Source of the DNA: a virus
Lineage: Duplodnaviria > Heunggongvirae > Uroviricota > Caudoviricetes
Length of the DNA: 5,200 bases
Virus record (IMG/VR): IMGVR_UViG_3300000357_000284
Span: 1 to 5,200 of that record
Strand: one strand, 5' to 3'
Within the stretch, counting starts at the first letter, position 1; each line of letters opens with the position of its first letter. The notes under the pieces are model-generated. The model searched no databases. It saw nothing but the letters and a program-made list of their open reading frames with translations, and was not told the origin of the DNA. The translations under genes were made by a program, and so were the position numbers. Below, one piece after another: positions 1 to 5,200 of this stretch.

Positions 1-1248
1 ATGGCACTGAATATTCCATTCAGAAATGCGTACTATCGTTTTGCATCCAGTTACTCATTTCTCTTTTTTATTTCCTGGTCGCTGTGGTGGTCGTTATACG
101 CTATTTGGCTGAAAGGACATCTAGGATTAACAGGGACGGAATTAGGTACACTTTATTCGGTCAACCAGTTTACCAGCATTCTATTTATGATGTTCTACGG
201 CATCGTTCAGGATAAACTCGGTCTGAAGAAACCGCTCATCTGGTGTATGAGTTTCATTCTGGTCTTGACCGGACCGTTTATGATTTACGTTTATGAACCG
301 TTACTGCAAAGCAATTTTTCTGTAGGTCTAATTCTGGGGGCGCTCTTTTTTGGCCTGGGGTATCTGGCGGGATGCGGTTTGCTTGACAGCTTCACCGAAA
401 AAATGGCGCGAAATTTTCATTTCGAATATGGAACAGCGCGCGCCTGGGGATCTTTTGGCTATGCTATTGGCGCGTTCTTTGCCGGTATATTTTTTAGTAT
501 CAGTCCCCATATCAACTTCTGGTTGGTCTCGCTATTTGGCGCTGTATTTATGATGATCAACATGCGTTTTAAAGATAAGGATCACCAGTGCATAGCGGCG
601 GATGCGGGAGGGGTAAAAAAAGAGGATTTTATCGCAGTTTTCAAGGATCGAAACTTCTGGGTTTTCGTCATATTTATTGTGGGGACGTGGTCTTTCTATA
701 ACATTTTTGATCAACAACTCTTTCCTGTCTTTTATGCAGGTTTATTCGAATCACACGATGTAGGAACGCGCCTGTATGGTTATCTCAACTCATTCCAGGT
801 GGTACTCGAAGCGCTGTGCATGGCGATTATTCCTTTCTTTGTGAATCGGGTAGGGCCAAAAAATGCATTACTTATCGGTGTTGTGATTATGGCGTTGCGT
901 ATCCTTTCTTGCGCGCTGTTCGTTAACCCCTGGATTATTTCATTAGTGAAGCTGTTACATGCCATTGAGGTTCCACTTTGTGTCATATCCGTCTTCAAAT
1001 ACAGCGTGGCAAACTTTGATAAGCGCCTGTCGTCGACGATCTTTCTGATTGGTTTTCAAATTGCCAGTTCGCTTGGGATTGTGCTGCTTTCAACGCCGAC
1101 TGGGATACTCTTTGACCACGCAGGCTACCAGACAGTTTTCTTCGCAATTTCGGGTATTGTCTGCCTGATGTTGCTATTTGGCATTTTCTTCCTGAGTAAA
1201 AAACGCGAGCAAATAGTTATGGAAACGCCTGTACCTTCAGCAATATAG
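1..1248 (+). CDS. cscB: Sucrose:H+ symporter (MFS, LacY-type oligosaccharide/H+ symporter family), complete, 415 aa
   Basis: Full ORF from ATG 1-3 to TAG 1246-1248. Translation is strongly hydrophobic with about 12 membrane segments and LacY-family-like stretches (EYGTARAWGSFGY, FDQQLFPVF, GPKNALL, VFKY). N-terminus MALNIPFRNAYYRF and length match my recollection of E. coli CscB. The four ORFs in the track inside this span are out-of-frame or antisense artefacts. Confidence 0.9.
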   Translation: MALNIPFRNAYYRFASSYSFLFFISWSLWWSLYAIWLKGHLGLTGTELGTLYSVNQFTSILFMMFYGIVQDKLGLKKPLIWCMSFILVLTGPFMIYVYEPLLQSNFSVGLILGALFFGLGYLAGCGLLDSFTEKMARNFHFEYGTARAWGSFGYAIGAFFAGIFFSISPHINFWLVSLFGAVFMMINMRFKDKDHQCIAADAGGVKKEDFIAVFKDRNFWVFVIFIVGTWSFYNIFDQQLFPVFYAGLFESHDVGTRLYGYLNSFQVVLEALCMAIIPFFVNRVGPKNALLIGVVIMALRILSCALFVNPWIISLVKLLHAIEVPLCVISVFKYSVANFDKRLSSTIFLIGFQIASSLGIVLLSTPTGILFDHAGYQTVFFAISGIVCLMLLFGIFFLSKKREQIVMETPVPSAI

Positions 1249-1258
1249 ACGTAAACTT

Positions 1259-1300
1259 TTTCCGGTTGTTGTCGATATCTCCATATCCCTCAACCGGAAA
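1259..1300. repeat. Perfect 10-bp inverted repeat (TTTCCGGTTG ... CAACCGGAAA) with a 22-nt loop, 11 nt after the cscB stop; possible 3' stem-loop or protein-binding palindrome, not a canonical intrinsic terminator
   Basis: Arms at 1259-1268 and 1291-1300 are exact reverse complements. The flank is A-rich downstream and T-rich upstream on the + strand, so there is no U-tract after the stem on either strand. Confidence 0.4.
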
Positions 1301-1327
1301 ATAATAATACAAAAATGCTTAGCCCAA

Positions 1328-1564
1328 CTAATAATCACCTAATCCAAACGCCTCATTCATGTTCTGGTACAGTCGCTCAAATGTACTCCGGATACGCGGT
1401 TCGCTGATTTCCAGGACATTGTCGTCATTCAGCGACCTGTCCCGAGTATCACGGGCCTGCGAATTCATCAAGGAATGCATTGCAGAGTGAAGTATCGAGT
1501 CACGCCATATTTCGCTATCAGGATTCTGTATGATGGTTACATCGCCCAGCCCAGGGCTGTTTAG
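1328..1564 (-). pseudogene. 3'-terminal gene remnant: open frame of 78 codons ending ...ERLYQNMNEAFGLGDY, TAG at 1330-1328, no start codon or RBS at the 5' end; identity unknown
   Basis: Manual translation of the minus strand gives an uninterrupted frame from 1564 to 1331, bounded upstream by an in-frame TGA at 1567-1565. The first ATG is internal (1480-1478, giving only 50 aa) and has no Shine-Dalgarno. No tyrosine-recombinase motifs are visible. Confidence 0.3.
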
Positions 1565-1689
1565 TCATCAGCGCTTTCTGACAGTGCTGAGATTTCAACC
1601 TGTTGCAGTAAAAATGAGTAGATATAGGGCAAGTGTGCTGCCAAACCCATCTTTTACGGGGTGAAGGTAGATTTGGTTTGAAGGGTATC

Positions 1690-1704
1690 TGGTGTCCCCT
1701 GCAG
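1690..1704 (-). other. Prophage attachment-site core: 15-nt exact copy of the 3' end of tRNA-Arg argW (CTGCAGGGGACACCA on the minus strand), attR-type junction
   Basis: Minus-strand 1704-1690 reads CTGCAGGGGACACCA, identical to the acceptor 3' half plus CCA of argW as I remember it. The sequence diverges from the tRNA immediately upstream, so this is a partial copy and not a tRNA gene. An excisionase gene lies 74 bp away. Confidence 0.6.
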
Positions 1705-1761
1705 ACATCTACTTGACGCGGCAGGGGATTGATTGGAATGGTGTTTTTTAGATGTGAAAAA

Positions 1762-1783
1762 TATTTTACCCGCTATTTTACCC
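1762..1783. repeat. Tandem direct repeat TATTTTACCC x2 (1762-1771 and 1774-1783) overlapping the torI stop codon; candidate arm-type or excisionase binding sites
   Basis: Two exact 10-bp copies separated by 2 nt, 58-79 bp from the att core. A 7-bp inverted repeat ACATCTA/TAGATGT (1705-1711 and 1750-1756) lies in the same arm. Confidence 0.35.
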
Positions 1784-1978
1784 ATTGGCGCGGCTTAAGA
1801 GCTTATTTTTGAATTCACAATGGTCACGATATAACCATCTTGCTCGCCCGTGGATAACTTTGGCTTTTGGCAGGTCGCCGGACTTAATCCGGTCATAGAT
1901 GAAGGTTTTACCGAAGCCAGTATCGGCCATGATGAATTTCAAATCAACCAGTGAATCAGGTTGTAGTTCGTGTTGCAT
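1778..1978 (-). CDS. torI: AlpA/Xis-family winged-helix excisionase (recombination directionality factor), 66 aa; matches my recollection of TorI of the KplE1/CPS-53 prophage
   Basis: ATG 1978-1976 preceded by GGAG (1991-1988, 9-nt spacer); TAA at 1780-1778. The 66-aa product contains the AlpA-like core ADTGFGKTFIYDRIKSGDLPKAKVIHGRARWLYRD. It sits next to the argW-derived att core with no integrase nearby, which is the known KplE1 layout (int at attL, RDF at attR). Confidence 0.7.
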   Translation of the reverse strand: MQHELQPDSLVDLKFIMADTGFGKTFIYDRIKSGDLPKAKVIHGRARWLYRDHCEFKNKLLSRANG

Positions 1979-1983
1979 GAGTG

Positions 1984-2202
1984 CTATCTCCGAATAGGGA
2001 ATCGAACCTGCAAATCAGGCAATAAAAAACCGCCATCAGGCGGCTTGGTGTTTTTCAGTTCTTCAATTCGAATATTGGTTACGTCTGCATGTGCTATCTG
2101 CGCCCACAGCATCCAGTGGTCATAGCAGTCATTGATGTTCTCTGCTTCGATAACTCTGTTGAATGGCTCTCCATTCCATTCACCTGTAACTCGGAAGTGC
2201 AT
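1984..2202 (-). CDS. Doubtful 72-aa ORF (MHFRVTGEWNGEPFNRVIEAENINDCYDHW...), possibly a gene remnant; reads through the terminator hairpin and the tRNA-like block
   Basis: ATG 2202-2200 with GGAG at 2213-2210 (7-nt spacer), but the start lies inside the U-tail of an upstream terminator and the last ~25 codons are encoded by the 2030-2043 hairpin and the argW T-arm-like block. TAG at 1986-1984. Confidence 0.3.
   Translation of the reverse strand: MHFRVTGEWNGEPFNRVIEAENINDCYDHWMLWAQIAHADVTNIRIEELKNTKPPDGGFLLPDLQVRFPIRR
1998..2013 (-). other. 16-nt block identical to the argW T-arm region (TTGCAGGTTCGATTCC on the minus strand), separated from the 15-nt core by 293 bp that contain torI
   Basis: Minus-strand 2013-1998 reads TTGCAGGTTCGATTCC. 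In argW this sequence is directly followed by TGCAGGGGACACCA, but here it is followed by CTATTCGG, so no cloverleaf can form. It overlaps the torI RBS region. Confidence 0.4.
2024..2055 (-). terminator. Intrinsic terminator: GC hairpin CCGCC-ATCA-GGCGG (2030-2043) followed on the minus strand by TTTTTTATT; weaker in the + direction
   Basis: 5-bp GC stem with 4-nt loop; A-run 2024-2029 gives a U6 tract right after the stem on the minus transcript. On the + strand the T-run (2051-2055) is 7 nt from the stem. Confidence 0.55.
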
Positions 2203-2213
2203 TTATCATCTCC

Positions 2214-2240
2214 ATAAAACAAAACTCGCCGTAGCGAGTT
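2214..2240 (-). terminator. Intrinsic terminator: 7-bp stem AACTCGC / GCGAGTT (2223-2229 and 2234-2240) with 4-nt loop, followed on the minus strand by TTTTGTTTTAT
   Basis: Perfect 7-bp inverted repeat with tetraloop; T-rich tail on the minus strand (plus 2212-2222); about 70 nt downstream of the stop of the 2310-2570 gene. Confidence 0.5.
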
Positions 2241-2309
2241 CAGATAAAAGAAATCCCCGCGAGTGCGAGGATTGTTATTCACCTTTGACGGCAAGTTGCA
2301 GGTTAGCCA

Positions 2310-2570
2310 TTACCGCACCTCCAGTCTCCATACCGCCTGACCAATCCGGCTGGCATAGGTATCTTTGGATACTGCTCCGTCTTTAGCCAGCTCCATAAGA
2401 ATTTTGCGCAAATCTGCCGAACGCCATTCTTCATCAGGAAATTCCTTCTCCATTGCCAAGCGCAGATTCCAGGTTGCCATCCTGAATGGATATTCCCCGC
2501 CGAGAGCTTTATCTTGCAGGGCAGCCCGGGAACGCATCACCTGCAAAACCTTCTCTTTTACATCCATCAT
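2310..2570 (-). CDS. Hypothetical phage protein, about 86 aa (MMDVKEKVLQVMRSRAALQDKALGGEYPFRMATWNLRLAMEKEFPDEEWRSADLRKILMELAKDGAVSKDTYASRIGQAVWRLEVR)
   Basis: AGGAGG at 2580-2575 followed by ATGATG (2570-2565); the first ATG overlaps the TGA of the upstream gene (ATGA coupling). TAA at 2312-2310. The track ORF begins 18 codons earlier, inside the upstream gene, which I treat as an over-extension. Confidence 0.6.
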   Translation of the reverse strand: MMDVKEKVLQVMRSRAALQDKALGGEYPFRMATWNLRLAMEKEFPDEEWRSADLRKILMELAKDGAVSKDTYASRIGQAVWRLEVR

Positions 2571-3130
2571 TTCGCCTCCTGCGGCGGCTCTGGTAGCGGC
2601 ATCCAGTGGGTTACTCCATGCCATATACCAGTTAAGGTTTCAAACCTTGGCTCTCTGCCTTTCTGTGTCTTGGCATATTCATTCCTTGTATATACGCATT
2701 GTCTAACTGCATATCCATTCCATCCAATAACTGTTTGTCTAATTTCAGGCATTCGCTCACTACAGCTTATCCAACCATCCGGAGTTACCGGAGTTGGTCC
2801 ATCGAATTCTGGCATGTCAGGACCTTTTCTGATAGCTTTAGCCAGCTCCAGCGGGTCATCGTAAAGCCAGTCGCCAGTTTGTGGGTGATTTGCTTCTGCA
2901 AGCTGCGCAGCCCATTCAAGACCATCTTTTTGACCTTGGAGATAATCAAGCGGCAACTCTTCATGATTACTTGCAGGTTCTGCACTATCAGCTTCGCGCC
3001 GCTTCTGTAGCTCTGCTGCCATCGCTCTCACGACTTCAACTGGTGCCCTTGCAGCAAACTCTATGTTGGTGATCAGCTCATTAAGATATTGCTCGCTGGG
3101 ATACTGTTTCTTATTGGTAATAGTGGTCAT
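2567..3130 (-). CDS. Phage protein with C-terminal DUF551-like domain (GWISCSERMPE ... THWMPLPEPP), 187 aa
   Basis: ATG 3130-3128 overlaps the TGA (3129-3127) of the upstream gene. The C-terminal ~70 aa carry the W-I-S...LPE and HWMPLPEPP pattern I associate with DUF551 proteins of enterobacterial prophages. The N-terminal ~110 aa are acidic and unassigned. Confidence 0.75.
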   Translation of the reverse strand: MTTITNKKQYPSEQYLNELITNIEFAARAPVEVVRAMAAELQKRREADSAEPASNHEELPLDYLQGQKDGLEWAAQLAEANHPQTGDWLYDDPLELAKAIRKGPDMPEFDGPTPVTPDGWISCSERMPEIRQTVIGWNGYAVRQCVYTRNEYAKTQKGREPRFETLTGIWHGVTHWMPLPEPPQEAK

Positions 3131-3642
3131 GCCGCGTTTCCTTCTTTCTTATTAACAATTACACCGTCATATATTTCATTAAGGTGCCCTCTCAACTCCA
3201 TGCGCCTTAATGCAGATAACATGTAATCGCATTCAACCTGCTTATTTCCAGTAAATGGCTTATCGTCAGGATTACCCCAACAGCAATTACCCTTGGGCCA
3301 TCCATGTACTTTCCGTACTCTTCCGTTAACAACGTGAAGTAATCCCCAGCCGGGTGGTAAATCCTCAACTGAAATAATTCCCGGCTCACTAATAAAGAAT
3401 CGCCAGTCGCCCATTCCAAGAGACGGATTTTTACGAAAACGCTTTTTTCTATCTGCCAACAAGTCAGCACGAGAACATTTCGCCTCTATCAGGCATGATG
3501 CTGAATTTCTGAATCCCATAGCATCTGGCTGTTCTCCGGTACTGGTTACAGCTATAAAGCGGTCATGAAAACAAACCTTGAACTCGTTGCGCTTAAGGAA
3601 CTTATACGCAATCTGACAGAGTTCGCGGTGTGTTAACGCCAT
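3127..3642 (-). CDS. PD-(D/E)XK-fold nuclease-like protein, 171 aa from ATG 3642 (MALTHRELCQIAYKFLKRN...)
   Basis: Start ATG 3642-3640 is preceded by AAAGGAGAGTGAT. The track ORF starts 6 codons earlier and would translate through the RBS itself (MGKESD-MALT). Motif order fits the PD-(D/E)XK core: helix with E (HRELCQIAYKFLK), strand ending in PD (GEQPDAMGF), then E-x-K (CLIEAK). Family (VRR-NUC-like or MmcB-like) not resolved. Confidence 0.65.
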   Translation of the reverse strand: MALTHRELCQIAYKFLKRNEFKVCFHDRFIAVTSTGEQPDAMGFRNSASCLIEAKCSRADLLADRKKRFRKNPSLGMGDWRFFISEPGIISVEDLPPGWGLLHVVNGRVRKVHGWPKGNCCWGNPDDKPFTGNKQVECDYMLSALRRMELRGHLNEIYDGVIVNKKEGNAA

Positions 3643-3655
3643 ATCACTCTCCTTT
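3638..3655 (-). promoter_or_regulatory. Conserved translation-initiation module, copy 1 (minus strand AAAGGAGAGTGATATGGC), start of the nuclease-like gene
   Basis: 18-nt exact identity with copy 3 (4375-4392); contains SD GGAGAG, an in-module TGA and the ATG. Confidence 0.6.
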
Positions 3656-3678
3656 CCCATGTTGTCATGTGTTAGTCC

Positions 3679-3942
3679 TTATCCTGCTGTGCTTTCAACT
3701 GATGAGGGGAATAAAATCTTTTCATCAAATCCGGCATTCATATCATGGACAGCAACACACCAATCCATCGACGAACGATTATCAAGAGCCTCCATGATTT
3801 CATCCATGCGGCGCAGGTCATACAGGTAAATGTTTTTATCGCCAATGGTGTAAAAACCAATTTTTTTCGGTGATGGGCAGCGATCAAGAACTTCCTGTAA
3901 TTCGTTCAACCATGCCTGTTCTTTTTTTGTCAAAGTTGCCAT
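3679..3942 (-). CDS. Hypothetical small protein, 87 aa (MATLTKKEQAWLNELQEVLDRCPSPKKIGFYTIGDKNIYLYDLRRMDEIMEALDNRSSMDWCVAVHDMNAGFDEKILFPSSVESTAG)
   Basis: ATG 3942-3940 is 1 nt after the TGA (3946-3944) of the upstream gene and is preceded by AAGGAAAG. TAA at 3681-3679. The track ORF starts 30 codons further upstream without an RBS. Confidence 0.55.
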   Translation of the reverse strand: MATLTKKEQAWLNELQEVLDRCPSPKKIGFYTIGDKNIYLYDLRRMDEIMEALDNRSSMDWCVAVHDMNAGFDEKILFPSSVESTAG

Positions 3943-3943
3943 A

Positions 3944-4162
3944 TCAGCTTTCCTTATACGGATTAATTTTATTGTGCAGTGTGTTGAACGACGCCCATAC
4001 CACGTCGTTATACAATTCAATAACTGGCTCAATTACTTTTCCGATTATCCAGGCCAGTAATAGCGGGGATATCGGTATCATCAACACGATAAACAGAATG
4101 AGAAACAAAAATTCTATCGCTCTACTTTTTCGCGGATATTCTTTTCTGAATAATGTAGGCAC
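3944..4162 (-). CDS. Small single-pass membrane protein, 72 aa, GTG start (MPTLFRKEYPRKSRAIEFLFLILFIVLMIPISPLLLAWIIGKVIEPVIELYNDVVWASFNTLHNKINPYKES)
   Basis: GTG 4162-4160 preceded by AAAGGAGAGTGAT and 1 nt after the TGA (4166-4164) of the upstream gene. One 25-residue hydrophobic helix after a basic N-terminus (positive-inside). The ATG in another frame at 4164-4162 gives only 16 codons. Confidence 0.5.
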   Translation of the reverse strand: MPTLFRKEYPRKSRAIEFLFLILFIVLMIPISPLLLAWIIGKVIEPVIELYNDVVWASFNTLHNKINPYKES

Positions 4163-4175
4163 ATCACTCTCCTTT
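4160..4175 (-). promoter_or_regulatory. Conserved translation-initiation module, copy 2 (minus strand AAAGGAGAGTGATGTG), stop of the Cys-rich gene and GTG start of the membrane-protein gene
   Basis: 15 of 16 positions identical to copies 1 and 3; the single change converts ATG to GTG. Confidence 0.55.
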
Positions 4176-4379
4176 GTTGCTCCTCAAAATTTTATGCCCT
4201 GGCGCAAAAGCACGCGTTTTGTCGGCGCTTATTCGCCACCCATCTTTACGTGCCTCTTTTGCACAGCCAGCCCATGACGTACCGATATACTCACCGAAGT
4301 CTGGCACTGGATATACACCTTCCGTACACTGGCGGCAGTCACAATAGAGATGCATGGTGTAACTTGCGGCAATAGCCAT
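4164..4379 (-). CDS. Cys-rich small protein, 71 aa, putative zinc-binding (HLYCDCRQC ... GC); family unknown
   Basis: ATG 4379-4377 preceded by AAAGGAGAGTGAT and 1 nt after the TGA (4383-4381) of the upstream gene. C-x-C-x2-C cluster plus a fourth Cys 22 residues later. The track ORF starts 24 codons upstream, inside the preceding gene. Confidence 0.55.
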   Translation of the reverse strand: MAIAASYTMHLYCDCRQCTEGVYPVPDFGEYIGTSWAGCAKEARKDGWRISADKTRAFAPGHKILRSNKGE

Positions 4380-4392
4380 ATCACTCTCCTTT
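4375..4392 (-). promoter_or_regulatory. Conserved translation-initiation module, copy 3 (minus strand AAAGGAGAGTGATATGGC), stop of the basic-protein gene and start of the Cys-rich gene
   Basis: 18-nt exact identity with copy 1; the TGA inside the module is the real stop of the upstream gene here. Confidence 0.6.
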
Positions 4393-4569
4393 AGTACGCA
4401 AGTGGTTTTTCCAGCGGTTTTGCGCCGCGCTGGGCTTTTTGCAAAAACCACAATCCATCATCCCGTAATGTTTCATTAACCCCATCCGTCGGTTGCTGAG
4501 TCTCACCCACTGCCATACGCCTGGATCGTTTCTGCGAACTAACAGAATCTTTGCTTTACGGTTTTTCAT
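4381..4569 (-). CDS. Small basic protein, 62 aa (MKNRKAKILLVRRNDPGVWQWVRLSNRRMGLMKHYGMMDCGFCKKPSAAQNRWKNHLRTKGE)
   Basis: ATG 4569-4567 preceded by GGAGAG (7-nt spacer); overlaps the 3' end of the Ea22-like gene by 14 nt. The track start at 4662 is a TTG without RBS. Net charge is strongly positive, suggesting nucleic-acid binding. Confidence 0.45.
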   Translation of the reverse strand: MKNRKAKILLVRRNDPGVWQWVRLSNRRMGLMKHYGMMDCGFCKKPSAAQNRWKNHLRTKGE

Positions 4570-5200
4570 CGCTTTGCTCTCCTGCGTCTCCTTTGATGCG
4601 AATGCCAGGGGCGCGTGGCACATTAACTTCCACGATGCGCACAGTTGGTTTGTACATCTCAATCGCTGTCAGCCAGTCAGCTCCTGTCATGCGCTTTTCC
4701 GCATCGCCATTAGTCCACTGAACCGGTACACCAATAGCCTTCATCGCGATTTCTATTTCCCCGGCAATGGCGCTTTTTCCGCAACCAGTAAAACCAGATA
4801 CAACGACAAGAACTTCGCCTTTGGCTGGTTTTATTTCCCGTGCTTCCAGTTCTGCTATGCGCTTCTCTGCGGATTCCAGCGCCGCAACCAATTCGTCTAC
4901 AGTTCCGGCAGCTTGCAGTGCGTAATCGGTAATAGCCATCTCATGATCAATTTCAGTACCGTTCTCATTCGTTGAGGTGATAGCAAAATAATCAGAGTCG
5001 ATTTCGTTATCAGCTAAGTGGCGTAGCGTATCGGCAACAAGCCGGCCGTTTTCGATTAGCAGCTTCCCAACCGTAAGAGCAATTTCCTCGTTCTCCTGGT
5101 CGCGGGATTTGATGTACTGCTGGTTTCTTTCCCGTTCATCCAGAAGCGCCAGCACAGTAGCCGGATTGGCTGCGGCGATGAATTCAGCATTGGCCTGCTG
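4556..5200 (-). CDS. Ea22-like early-region phage protein, 5'-truncated by the window edge (at least 214 codons); C-terminal part contains a Walker-A-like GFTGCGKS
   Basis: The frame is open from 5200 down to TAA 4558-4556; the track start at 5155 is an internal GTG. The N-terminal stretch FIAAANPATVLALLDERERN followed by a coiled-coil-like region resembles Ead/Ea22-like proteins as I remember them. Codons for G-F-T-G-C-G-K-S map to 4795-4772 after a hydrophobic strand VLVVVS. Confidence 0.6.
   Translation of the reverse strand, partial: QQANAEFIAAANPATVLALLDERERNQQYIKSRDQENEEIALTVGKLLIENGRLVADTLRHLADNEIDSDYFAITSTNENGTEIDHEMAITDYALQAAGTVDELVAALESAEKRIAELEAREIKPAKGEVLVVVSGFTGCGKSAIAGEIEIAMKAIGVPVQWTNGDAEKRMTGADWLTAIEMYKPTVRIVEVNVPRAPGIRIKGDAGEQSDEKP

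Follow-up and report, generated by a model that had tools for sequence, protein, structure and literature searches.

A recurrent stop, Shine-Dalgarno and start module between accessory genes of lambdoid prophages, and its probable role in single-gene exchange

A repeated gene junction in a prophage operon

A module of 16–18 nt, which holds the last codons of one gene, a Shine-Dalgarno sequence, a stop codon and the start codon of the next gene, recurs among the small accessory genes of a lambdoid prophage, and hundreds of related phages and prophages have it between genes too, with variable flanks on both sides. We interpret it as a composite element, with a probability of roughly 65%, in which a translation junction would also act as a short-homology linker for single-gene swaps in lambdoid prophages. 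An earlier, sequence-only reading had proposed either a junction at which genes are exchanged or a shared translation signal; these readings are not mutually exclusive. Comparative data support the first through reticulate pairing of the flanking genes, breakpoints in the module, permuted gene order and a cassette indel bounded by the module, and the second is consistent with the sequence of the junction itself.

The window analysed here comprises 5,200 nt (positions 1 to 5,200 of IMG/VR record IMGVR_UViG_3300000357_000284); it carries cscB, which encodes the sucrose permease of the host, and then the early-left "ea / exo-xis" accessory genes of a lambdoid prophage. The genes considered all lie on the minus strand. 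They begin with an Ead/Ea22-like gene (4556..5200, with its 5′ end outside the window), whose family is the commonest upstream partner of the module, followed by a 62-aa gene (p62, phrog_1380; 4381..4569), a cassette with its own ribosome-binding site at the start and the module at the end, and a 71-aa gene (p71, phrog_926; 4164..4379), a cassette flanked by the module at both ends. A DUF4014 gene of 72 aa with a GTG start (3944..4162) and an 87-aa gene (p87, phrog_1714; 3679..3942) come next, and a 171-aa gene (p171, phrog_631/9263, a homologue of P7 upf89.0; 3127..3642) starts at a module copy and ends in an ATGA overlap with a DUF551 gene. Proteins encoded in the neighbourhood are a TorI excisionase, DUF551, DUF4014, Ead/Ea22 and proteins without an assigned function. 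Neither a promoter nor a terminator was found at any module copy or on the minus strand between approximately 2300 and 5200, so the genes form one operon. A structured RNA, a tRNA and an attachment-site fragment were ruled out as candidates, given 0 Rfam matches at gathering thresholds across the whole window and no tRNA or tmRNA found in it by ARAGORN.

The core of the module, AAAGGAGAGTGAT, occurs three times as an exact 13-mer, always on the minus strand (3655-3643, 4175-4163 and 4392-4380), as had been noticed before. Two copies, at 4375..4392 and 3638..3655, are indeed identical over 18 nt (AAAGGAGAGTGATATGGC); the third (AAAGGAGAGTGATGTGCC, 4158..4175) departs only by ATG to GTG across 4160-4175, and over the full 18 nt in the second codon too (CC, not GC). 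That chance could not account for such a family is borne out by dinucleotide-preserving shuffles (n = 200, allowing up to 2 mismatches), which yielded a mean of 0.15 matches, none reaching the 4 observed. Nor do the copies lie within one larger duplication, a possibility that the earlier reading had raised against itself, because their flanks are unrelated and do not align, and a repeat search recovered the 18-nt family only. The proposed unit of 16–18 nt does recur, but the conserved stretch often continues upstream, to approximately 37 nt, and encodes ...AGIRIKGE*.

Two further pieces had been missed by the earlier reading, a partial copy (CCTGGCATTCGCATCAAAGGAGA, 4609-4587, minus strand) and a degenerate one (AAGGAAAGCTGATATG, 3955-3940, minus strand). 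The partial copy (4587..4609) combines a ...PGIRIKG tail with the module's 5′ half, and is situated within the 3′ end of the Ead/Ea22-like gene. At the degenerate copy (3940..3955), the DUF4014 stop TGA (3946-3944) is followed by T and then by the ATG (3942-3940) of the 87-aa gene. In most relatives, DUF4014 and p87 remain a pair of genes held together by this degenerate junction; the DUF4014 neighbour and this junction type were found for 74 of the 79 p87 homologues.

The anatomy of the exact copies is that of a translation signal. At 4375..4392 the module supplies the K-G-E codons and the TGA (4383-4381) of the 62-aa gene, the Shine-Dalgarno sequence and the ATG (4379-4377) of the 71-aa gene; at 4158..4175 it likewise supplies the K-G-E codons and the TGA (4166-4164) of the 71-aa gene, the Shine-Dalgarno sequence and the GTG (4162-4160) of the DUF4014 gene. 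Both copies read K-G-E-stop(TGA)-T-ATG/GTG, with stop and start 1 nt apart as claimed. The copy at 3638..3655 carries the Shine-Dalgarno sequence and the ATG (3642-3640) of the 171-aa gene, but its TGA is not the stop of the gene upstream; the module is therefore present at three gene starts, as the earlier reading held, but forms a true stop/start junction at only two of them. Here the 87-aa gene stops at a TAA (3681-3679), 23 nt ahead of the module, and the TGA of the module closes a 6-codon relic (TGA CAA CAT GGG AAA GGA GAG TGA). The interval between the two (3656..3678, minus strand) is a probable deletion scar: when set beside the usual p87 end junction TAAGGAGTAACACATGACC and ...ATGCTTCATGGG-module tails, it probably represents an eaA/DUF551-type start (GGACTAACACATGAC) fused to the final codons, CAT GGG, of a ...HGKGE gene.

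The Shine-Dalgarno sequence, AAGGAG, is complementary to the 3′ end of 16S rRNA and lies within the 5–9 nt expected before the start codon, with a 6-nt spacer and a predicted anti-SD pairing energy of −9.1 kcal/mol; this is the strongest pairing in the window, in which the other annotated starts range from −2.8 to −7.4 kcal/mol. Folding and a repeat search of the window revealed no inverted repeat or notable local structure at the module. A hairpin hiding the ribosome-binding site was considered and judged unlikely, as the local minimum free energies at the module (−11 to −14 kcal/mol) fall inside the range of the window's other starts. The module therefore has the features of a working translation junction, at which translation of the downstream gene may be coupled to that of the gene before it.

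Assortment of genes on either side of the module

A scan of IMG/VR for the 16-mer returned 130 occurrences including the window, with 45 upstream and 38 downstream flank clusters in 76 pairings, although this first set of loci was picked by module presence and the database holds many near-identical prophages. The main connected network joins 23 upstream and 16 downstream clusters through 54 pairings, and for many upstream and downstream cluster pairs all four combinations are present. The module is thus a sequence conserved between unrelated flanks that assort independently, and it is located at the gene border, where it covers the stop codon of the upstream gene and the start codon of the downstream one. 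At the protein level, the upstream partners belong to at least five unrelated families (Ead/Ea22 alleles, MTTIT...AAMLHGKGE proteins, p62, p71 and a Mom/XF1762-like protein) and the downstream partners to at least ten; Pfam searches with further partner proteins gave almost no matches.

Most upstream partners are alleles of a single mosaic family, Ead/Ea22, with a tail that is conserved at the peptide level. These alleles carry their own conserved 3′ end, so that some of the diversity seen upstream reflects different alleles of a single gene.

The positions at which similarity is lost are concentrated on the module. When loci share the upstream gene and differ in the downstream gene, similarity stops 0–2 nt past the start codon in 64 of 70 comparisons; when they share the downstream gene and differ upstream, it stops 0–21 nt before AAAGGAG in 137 of 143, and at 0 nt in 58. 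Ends of local alignments along the window cluster at 3650-60, 3950, 4170, 4370-90 and 4550-90. Four-gamete tests on two sets of loci were at most suggestive of exchange at the module: incompatible site pairs amounted to 48% across the module versus 17–18% within genes in one set, and to 63% across the module versus 31% and 62% within genes in the other.

A ranking of 16-mers by the diversity of their contexts was biased, given that its loci had been picked by the module, and it was replaced by sets in which loci were chosen by protein homology, irrespective of module presence. In these unbiased sets, 71 of 80 p171 loci have the exact 16-mer at the gene start, preceded by 14 different neighbours; for p71 starts the figure is 43 of 79, the remainder being variants of 1–3 nt, and 15 upstream neighbours were recorded. 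Starts that lack the module (p62 and p87) have only 5–6 neighbour types, a comparison that sets two module-bearing junctions against two module-free ones. At gene ends, the exact 16-mer is present in all 79 of 79 p62 homologues. The three p87 genes that have an Ead/Ea22-type tail upstream all carry the exact module as well.

Gene order is also permuted among relatives, with p171>p87 in some and p87>p171 in others, and p62>p171>p71 as opposed to the window's p62>p71>...>p171. In E. coli strain 631, at the same chromosomal locus, the same Ea22 allele is joined straight to p171 via the module. Compared with this strain the window is longer by 932 nt, a four-gene block (3656-4586) whose two borders both carry AAAGGAGA, and the partial copy described above (4587..4609) forms the left border of the block.

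A search among related prophages had been suggested as a check by the sequence-only reading. The long form of the module is present in 1,664 of 5,426 complete E. coli genomes and in 396 phage records, and its carriers include lambda, HK620, HK022, Stx phages and P1-like plasmids. In lambda, HK620 and P7 the module is placed exactly at the end of the Ead/Ea22 gene; HK620 has one copy, with 1 mismatch, at the hkaG(Ead)/hkaF junction. P22 keeps the tail as AGIKVKGE at the peptide level with different codons, and its counterpart (AAGGGGGAATGA) retains K-G-E, a Shine-Dalgarno-like sequence and the stop with synonymous codons, such that nucleotide identity is broken. Other variants (AAAGGAGGGTGA, AAAGGAGACTGA and AAGGAAAACTGA) change the peptide and keep a purine-rich Shine-Dalgarno sequence and the TGA.

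Exchange linker, translation signal or conserved gene end

One alternative is that the module is a translation signal only, kept by selection for efficient coupled expression, while shuffling takes place in the flanking homologous genes. Its Shine-Dalgarno sequence, the strongest in the window, is ideally spaced, and only 1 nt separates stop and start; all this fits such a role, as do the tolerated variants with another peptide and the different codons of P22. The breakpoints, however, fall within or at the edge of the module on both sides and not in the neighbouring genes, unrelated genes are identical in the spacer AGTGAT and in the codon that follows ATG as well, and permuted gene order is not a product of exchange via flanking homologous genes. 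A convergent optimum is also difficult to reconcile with the rarity of the sequence elsewhere. The 18-mer occurs 58 times in 596 Gb of genomes from 185,579 species, nearly always in unrelated taxa, as against a chance expectation of approximately 17 (arithmetic, under uniform base composition), and since these are mostly chance matches in unrelated metagenome-assembled genomes the count is usable as a background rate only. On this evidence, bacterial genomes essentially lack the exact 18-mer except within these prophages, and bacterial genes at large make essentially no use of it, which argues that it is not a generally favoured ribosome-binding site. We therefore consider a purely translational role unlikely.

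A second alternative follows the Hendrix model, in which illegitimate recombination is followed by selection that filters random joints until just those at gene borders remain, and the module would be a hitch-hiker, namely the conserved 3′ end of the Ead/Ea22 family together with a downstream start. Illegitimate recombination is the field's default explanation for mosaic joints (PMC3029335; PMC2327257), Ead/Ea22 alleles with a ...GIRIKGE end make up many of the upstream partners, and the placement of the module in lambda, HK620 and P7 is what this scenario would predict. Nevertheless, the 16-mer also ends p62 (...RTKGE), p71 (...SNKGE), Mom/XF1762-like and MTTIT...HGKGE proteins; the 54 pairings share one identical joint sequence, whereas independent events would give heterogeneous joints; and the module sequence stands at both borders of the 932-nt indel. 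Hitch-hiking thus seems a doubtful account of the junction. A dedicated recognition site, whether for site-specific or homing-type recombination or for an RNA-binding regulator or small RNA that coordinates translation of accessory genes, is very improbable: all that speaks for it is how unusually exact the 16-mer is across many contexts, and against it are the lack of an inverted repeat, hairpin or Rfam match at the module, the lack of a site-specific recombinase or nuclease among the neighbouring genes other than the TorI excisionase, and breakpoints that spread over 0–21 nt upstream and are not fixed at one phosphodiester bond.

The composite reading, in which translation junction and exchange linker coincide, would operate as follows. 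In the polycistronic early-left (pL, "ea"/exo-xis) operon of a lambdoid prophage, AAA GGA GAG encodes the last residues of the upstream protein, K-G-E, and at once provides a strong Shine-Dalgarno sequence; the TGA then ends the upstream gene, and one base further on ATG or GTG opens the next. With stop and start adjoining and a Shine-Dalgarno sequence in place, ribosomes that finish one small accessory gene would be positioned to begin the next. Given that the same 16–18 nt close many unrelated genes and open many others, and that the common ...GGCATTCGCATC tail extends the shared stretch to approximately 37 nt, any pair of phages or prophages in the same cell would have a patch of perfect identity exactly at a gene border. 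A crossover in this patch could exchange, insert, delete or reorder whole genes and leave frames and translation signal intact, and direct repeats of the module within one genome could allow cassettes to be looped out.

An identity of 16–18 nt is short for efficient homologous recombination, including that by RecA. The crossover would most plausibly proceed by single-strand annealing, carried out by a recombinase of the Red-beta, RecT, Erf or Rad52 type whose gene lies further upstream in the operon. Recombinases of the Rad52/Rad22 family or RecT are encoded in the same operon of related prophages at this locus, and lambda has exo/bet and an ea22 that ends in the module. Homologous recombination at the module, the enzyme responsible and translational coupling are all three points that we infer from sequence comparison.

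A more far-reaching version of the composite reading, which we put forward tentatively and regard as rather improbable, is that the module is an evolved, dedicated adaptor for cassette exchange, its exact sequence maintained through use by the phage's own single-strand annealing recombinase from the same operon, and hence a counterpart of the integron based on homologous recombination. Single accessory genes, possibly with functions in host takeover or anti-defence, could then be gained, lost and reordered in any order with their expression preserved.

Relation to known junctions and implications

The idea that phage mosaicism is focused by boundary sequences was put forward by Susskind and Botstein (1978) and taken up for HK620, with seven sequences, by Clark et al. 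(2001), as cited in PMC3029335 and PMC2327257. Both articles also remark that a search for linker sequences at mosaic boundaries usually finds none. Lambdoid boundary sequences resemble the module in that they are short, conserved between unrelated segments and placed where modules meet, and the homologous recombination that assorts modules has been proposed to focus on them. The module differs in that it separates single accessory genes, recurs as a direct repeat several times per genome and is itself a stop, Shine-Dalgarno sequence and start. The seven HK620 sequences reportedly fall roughly where one functional multi-gene module meets another. The boundary-sequence idea is established and this junction is probably a new member of that kind, although one of the seven may overlap it; the junction was not found in the literature searched, including searches for the module sequence and the IRIKGE tail.

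Several other systems bear comparison. The promoter-early stem-loop (PeSL) cassettes of T4-type phages (Arbiol et al. 2010, PMC2839356) are likewise short expression signals repeated between non-essential genes in hyperplastic regions, where recombination inserts, deletes and replaces genes, and mini-circles have been shown for them. PeSLs, however, consist of a sigma-70 promoter and a terminator hairpin and belong to lytic myoviruses, whereas the module is translational, lacks both elements and is found in temperate lambdoid phages. A PeSL-like promoter/terminator cassette was accordingly rejected as an identity for the module, neither element being found at any copy. Translational coupling junctions in general also have a Shine-Dalgarno sequence in the last codons of the upstream gene and may have a stop 1 nt before the start, but ordinary ones are specific to a gene pair, while here the same 16–18 nt serve many unrelated pairs. 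Integron cassettes are similar in forming arrays of promoter-less single genes whose gain, loss and reordering take place at an element repeated in the junctions; the module, by contrast, has no attC-like inverted repeats and no integron integrase, and its exchange is presumed to be homologous.

All Ea22 proteins have been reported to end in K/R-G-E, a feature whose significance was given as unknown (Dydecka et al. 2020, PMC7093339). This "+GE" tripeptide corresponds to the module at the protein level, and we trace it here to AAA GGA GAG TGA, which is common to unrelated proteins. The module explains the "+GE" C-terminus of Ea22 proteins.

These observations touch on an old dispute over phage mosaicism, in which homologous exchange at conserved linkers is set against illegitimate recombination followed by selection. 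The module represents an unusually clean and abundant case of a linker, and its abundance makes the question directly testable. Annotation of small ea-region genes, and of fusions such as phrog_9263, is affected as well. If the module were in truth a dedicated adaptor, hypervariability of the exo-xis/ea region in lambda-like phages would be programmed. More broadly, the junction bears on how early accessory genes diversify in Stx and other prophages.

Copies of the module and their anatomy

The sequence-only reading had proposed that a start-site module is reused at three gene starts, either as a junction for gene swapping or as a signal for coupled translation. On the minus strand of the whole window, AAAGGAGAGTGAT occurs exactly three times (3655-3643, 4175-4163 and 4392-4380); allowing up to 2 mismatches yields 4 matches, whereas 200 dinucleotide-preserving shuffles averaged 0.15 and never (0/200) reached 4. 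The exact 18-mer has only 58 occurrences in 596 Gb of sequence from 185,579 bacterial and archaeal species; almost all of these lie in unrelated taxa, and their number is roughly of the order of magnitude expected from chance. Together, the shuffles and this background count rule out a chance origin of three copies in 750 bp, as had been claimed. A repeat search found one 18-nt family in the window, whose members at 3638-3655 and 4375-4392 are identical and whose third member (4158-4175) shares 89% identity; the earlier description of the latter as carrying GTG for ATG holds over 4160-4175, and across the 18 nt the following codon differs as well. Alignment of ~100-nt segments around the copies, with other junctions as controls, found no similarity outside the module, so the copies are independent rather than parts of one larger duplicated segment. 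A degenerate copy, AAGGAAAGCTGATATG (3955-3940, minus strand), lies at the junction of the DUF4014 gene and the 87-aa gene p87, and a partial copy, CCTGGCATTCGCATCAAAGGAGA (4609-4587, minus strand), within the end of the Ead/Ea22 gene.

The sucrose permease gene cscB occupies 1-1248 on the plus strand, and the rest of the window is a lambdoid prophage early-left accessory region on the minus strand, termed 'ea' in P22 and 'exo-xis' in lambda. First in transcription order is the Ead/Ea22-like gene (from beyond 5200 to 4556), followed by the 62-aa gene p62 (4569-4381), the 71-aa gene p71 (4379-4164), the DUF4014 gene with a GTG start (4162-3944), p87 (3942-3679), the 171-aa gene p171 (3642-3127), the DUF551 gene (3130-2567), two small genes and the excisionase gene torI (1978-1778). 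No promoter-like or terminator-like site was found on the minus strand from ~2300 to 5200, so these genes make up a single polycistronic unit; the window contains no Rfam family, tRNA or tmRNA. On the minus strand, the interval between torI and the 104-aa gene holds three terminator-like hairpins (2273-2252, 2241-2222 and 2046-2027); since the last falls inside the 3' part of a 72-aa ORF whose PHROG family has only 55 positions, this ORF may be over-extended. For the 104-aa ORF, the probable start is the ATG at position 2570 (GGAGGCGAAATGATGG), not 2624; this ATG has a Shine-Dalgarno pairing of -10.3 kcal/mol and an ATGA overlap with the DUF551 stop, and the PHROG 2814 alignment begins at residue 19. 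Between cscB and torI (1249-1778) there is no integrase, only short ORF fragments annotated in relatives as a DUF4942 fragment or hypothetical protein, and relative to HK620 (int-attP-torI) this end of the prophage looks degraded or rearranged.

The copies at 4392 and 4175 read AAA GGA GAG TGA T ATG/GTG, in which the first four codons are the final K-G-E codons and stop of the upstream gene, followed after one base by the start of the next. The AAGGAG stands 6 nt ahead of the start codon, and its pairing energy with the 16S rRNA 3' end is -9.1 kcal/mol, compared with only -2.8 to -7.4 kcal/mol at the remaining annotated starts of the window. The earlier statement that in two cases the upstream stop and the downstream start lie 1 nt apart proved correct, the two being 4392 and 4175. 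The third copy, 3655, starts p171, and there the upstream gene, p87, stops 23 nt earlier. The intervening stretch, 3656-3678, resembles a scar in which the junction commonly found at the end of p87 and the first part of an eaA/DUF551-type gene (TAAGGACTAACACATGAC) are combined with the final codons of a ...HGKGE gene (CAT GGG AAA GGA GAG TGA). Considered together with the comparative pattern, this anatomy suggests that, in a long operon of small genes, the module acts as a strong junction for coupled translation.

Variable gene pairings around the module

The window matched 576 of 50,697 phage records and 4,783 of 5,426 complete E. coli genomes, in each case piecewise. At least 80% of it was found in one place in none of either collection (0/50,697 and 0/5,426), the best coverage being 73% in 8 pieces; the region is therefore extremely mosaic, and the window's gene arrangement is unique among these records and genomes. 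A scan of IMG/VR with the 16-mer returned at least 120 loci, and 130 oriented occurrences, including the window, formed the basis of flank clusters. Among the matches listed, far flanks fell into 45 upstream and 38 downstream groups in 76 pairings, with a main connected network of 23 upstream and 16 downstream groups in 54 pairings; some 15-20 singleton matches on contigs of unusual GC content are probably due to chance. This network bears out the expectation that the module would sit at gene boundaries of related phages and prophages while the flanks vary. When the upstream gene was shared and the downstream gene differed, 64 of 70 comparisons among these matches had similarity stopping 0-2 nt past the start codon; with the downstream gene shared and the upstream gene different, it stopped 0-21 nt before AAAGGAG in 137 of 143 (at 0 nt in 58). 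Conservation in the matches listed is asymmetric, extending upstream through GC(C/T)GGCATTCGCATC (...AGIRI; 70-88% identity) and downstream only through GC. Upstream partner proteins belong to at least five unrelated families (many Ead/Ea22 alleles, MTTIT...AAMLHGKGE proteins, p62, p71 and a Mom/XF1762-like protein) and downstream partners to at least ten, and alignment endpoints of all IMG/VR loci cluster at the junctions (3650-60, 3950, 4170, 4370-90 and 4550-90).

Loci were also fetched by protein similarity (80 per query), which removes selection for the module. The p171 start was the exact 16-mer in 71/80 loci, behind 14 different upstream neighbours, with the other 9 off by 1-2 nt; the p71 start was exact in 43/79, with 15 neighbours and 1-3-nt variants in the remainder; and the p62 end was the exact module in 79/79, with six different downstream neighbours. 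Module-free starts had 5 (p62) and 6 (p87) neighbour types. p87 was mostly paired with DUF4014 via the degenerate junction, and the three p87 genes behind an Ead/Ea22-type tail all had the exact module. Gene order is permuted among phages, with both p171>p87 and p87>p171 observed, and with p62>p171>p71 elsewhere compared with p62>p71>DUF4014>p87>p171 in the window. A four-gamete test on two gene-pair sets gave incompatible site pairs of 48% across the module versus 17-18% within genes for p62/p171 and a less clear-cut 63% versus 31% and 62% for p62/p71; the test is taken as suggestive only.

In E. coli strain 631, the same site next to cscB is occupied by a prophage that shares the window's Ea22 allele, here joined directly to p171 via ...GGCATTCGCATC-AAAGGAGAGTGATATG-GCG. 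In local BLAST, window 3116-3655 matches 6035-6574 of that prophage record at 98.1%, and 4587-4867 matches 6567-6847 at 95.7%; the two matches share an 8-nt overlap, AAAGGAGA, so the window's extra 932-nt four-gene block (3656-4586) is bordered on both sides by module sequence.

Distribution and a possible mechanism

The 39-nt long form, which adds the upstream ...AGIRI-coding tail, occurs in 396 phage records and at 2,703 places in 1,664 of the 5,426 complete E. coli genomes; carriers include Stx1 and Stx2 phages, HK022, HK633, BP-4795, the P1-like P7 and SJ46, and some Salmonella and Shigella phages. In lambda (NC_001416, 29840-29860), ea22 ends in the long module (...GACGCTGGCATTCGCATCAAAGGAGAGTGAgatc) with the downstream ATG lost (TGAGATC), followed by the remnant of a short ORF (...GGTTTTGTAAAAGATAACG) that is intact in other phages. 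HK620 carries a single copy, with one mismatch, at hkaG(Ead)/hkaF. No copy is present in P22, whose EaD C-terminus AGIKVKGE is encoded by different codons (GCTGGCATCAAGGTTAAGGGGGAATGA). Phages of Enterobacter and Cronobacter have a sister form whose tail is ...AAAAGKGE. In P7 (AF503408, 88982-89020) the exact 39-nt long module joins an Ead-like gene to a p171 homologue, and the same cassettes occur in SJ46 and several 'Punavirus P1' records; lambdoid ea cassettes have thus moved into an unrelated phage type, the P1-like plasmid prophages.

We suggest that crossovers at the module produced the comparative pattern. As many genes end and begin with this one sequence, it would offer perfect identity exactly at gene borders, and crossovers within it would allow whole genes to be exchanged, inserted, deleted and reordered with both frames and the expression signal intact. 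Catalysis is likely to fall to the single-strand-annealing recombinases that the operon itself encodes further upstream (exo/bet in lambda; Rad52/Rad22-family or RecT in relatives at the window's locus); Red recombines short, diverged homologies, and about half of lambdoid mosaics bear traces of flanking homology (PMC2327257; PMC3945230). The flank pairings, breakpoints, permuted order and 932-nt block lend support to a swap junction as first proposed. One may postulate instead that illegitimate recombination followed by selection created these joints, the module being simply the conserved Ead/Ea22 end; this explains part of the data, namely some of the diversity on the upstream side and the conservation of the peptide in P22, but leaves unaccounted for the identical joint behind unrelated genes and the presence of module sequence on either side of the 932-nt block. 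A translation signal only does not explain the pattern, given that breakpoints coincide with the module, spacer and following codon are identical across unrelated genes, and gene order is permuted. A site-specific recombination or regulator-binding site finds no support, as inverted repeat and cognate enzyme are absent and breakpoints spread over ~20 nt.

Other joints occur nearby. Inside the DUF551 gene (2745-2792, minus strand), CCGGTAACTCCGGATGGTTGGATAAGCTGTAGTGAGC encodes ...PVTPDGWISCSE where the DUF551 domain begins and is the second most context-diverse conserved sequence among the fetched, module-selected loci (~15 contexts on either side); more than 100 alignment endpoints fall at 2740-2790, and the site resembles a mosaic joint within the gene, at the edge of a domain. 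At a second conserved junction type (3127-3145 and relatives), p171 or p71 often ends in an ATGA overlap followed by ATGACCACTATTAC (M-T-T-I-T), the 5' end common to eaA/DUF551-family genes, after which the sequence varies (5-7 downstream neighbour clusters). In phrog_9263 (230 positions), p62 matches 1-61 and p171 matches 62-230 (window 4381-4569 and 3127-3642), so some phages carry, or have annotated, a p62-p171 fusion across the module, which a 1-nt change in the AAAGGAGAG run would yield.

Relation to known linkers and to the Ea22 C-terminus

Boundary or linker sequences are a concept from modular theory (Susskind & Botstein 1978; Clark et al. 2001; as cited in PMC3029335 and PMC2327257), and reviews report seeing none at most mosaic borders. 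The closest functional analogue is found in T4-type phages, whose PeSL cassette, a transcriptional signal, recurs between accessory genes and mediates modular shuffling (PMC2839356); the module, in contrast, is translational, and the promoter and hairpin that define PeSL were not found at it. Neither the literal module sequence nor the peptide tail was found in the searchable literature, and a prior description, for example in Clark et al. 2001, is possible. All Ea22 proteins end in K/R-G-E, the significance of which was stated to be unknown (Dydecka et al. 2020, PMC7093339). The K-G-E ending is common to Ea22 and unrelated proteins, and the module's anatomy accounts for it: we read the tripeptide as the translated ribosome-binding site and linker of the next gene. 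On the comparative evidence, we regard the module as a real and unusually clear conserved junction linker of mosaic phage genomes, of a kind already known, that would double as a translational coupling signal.
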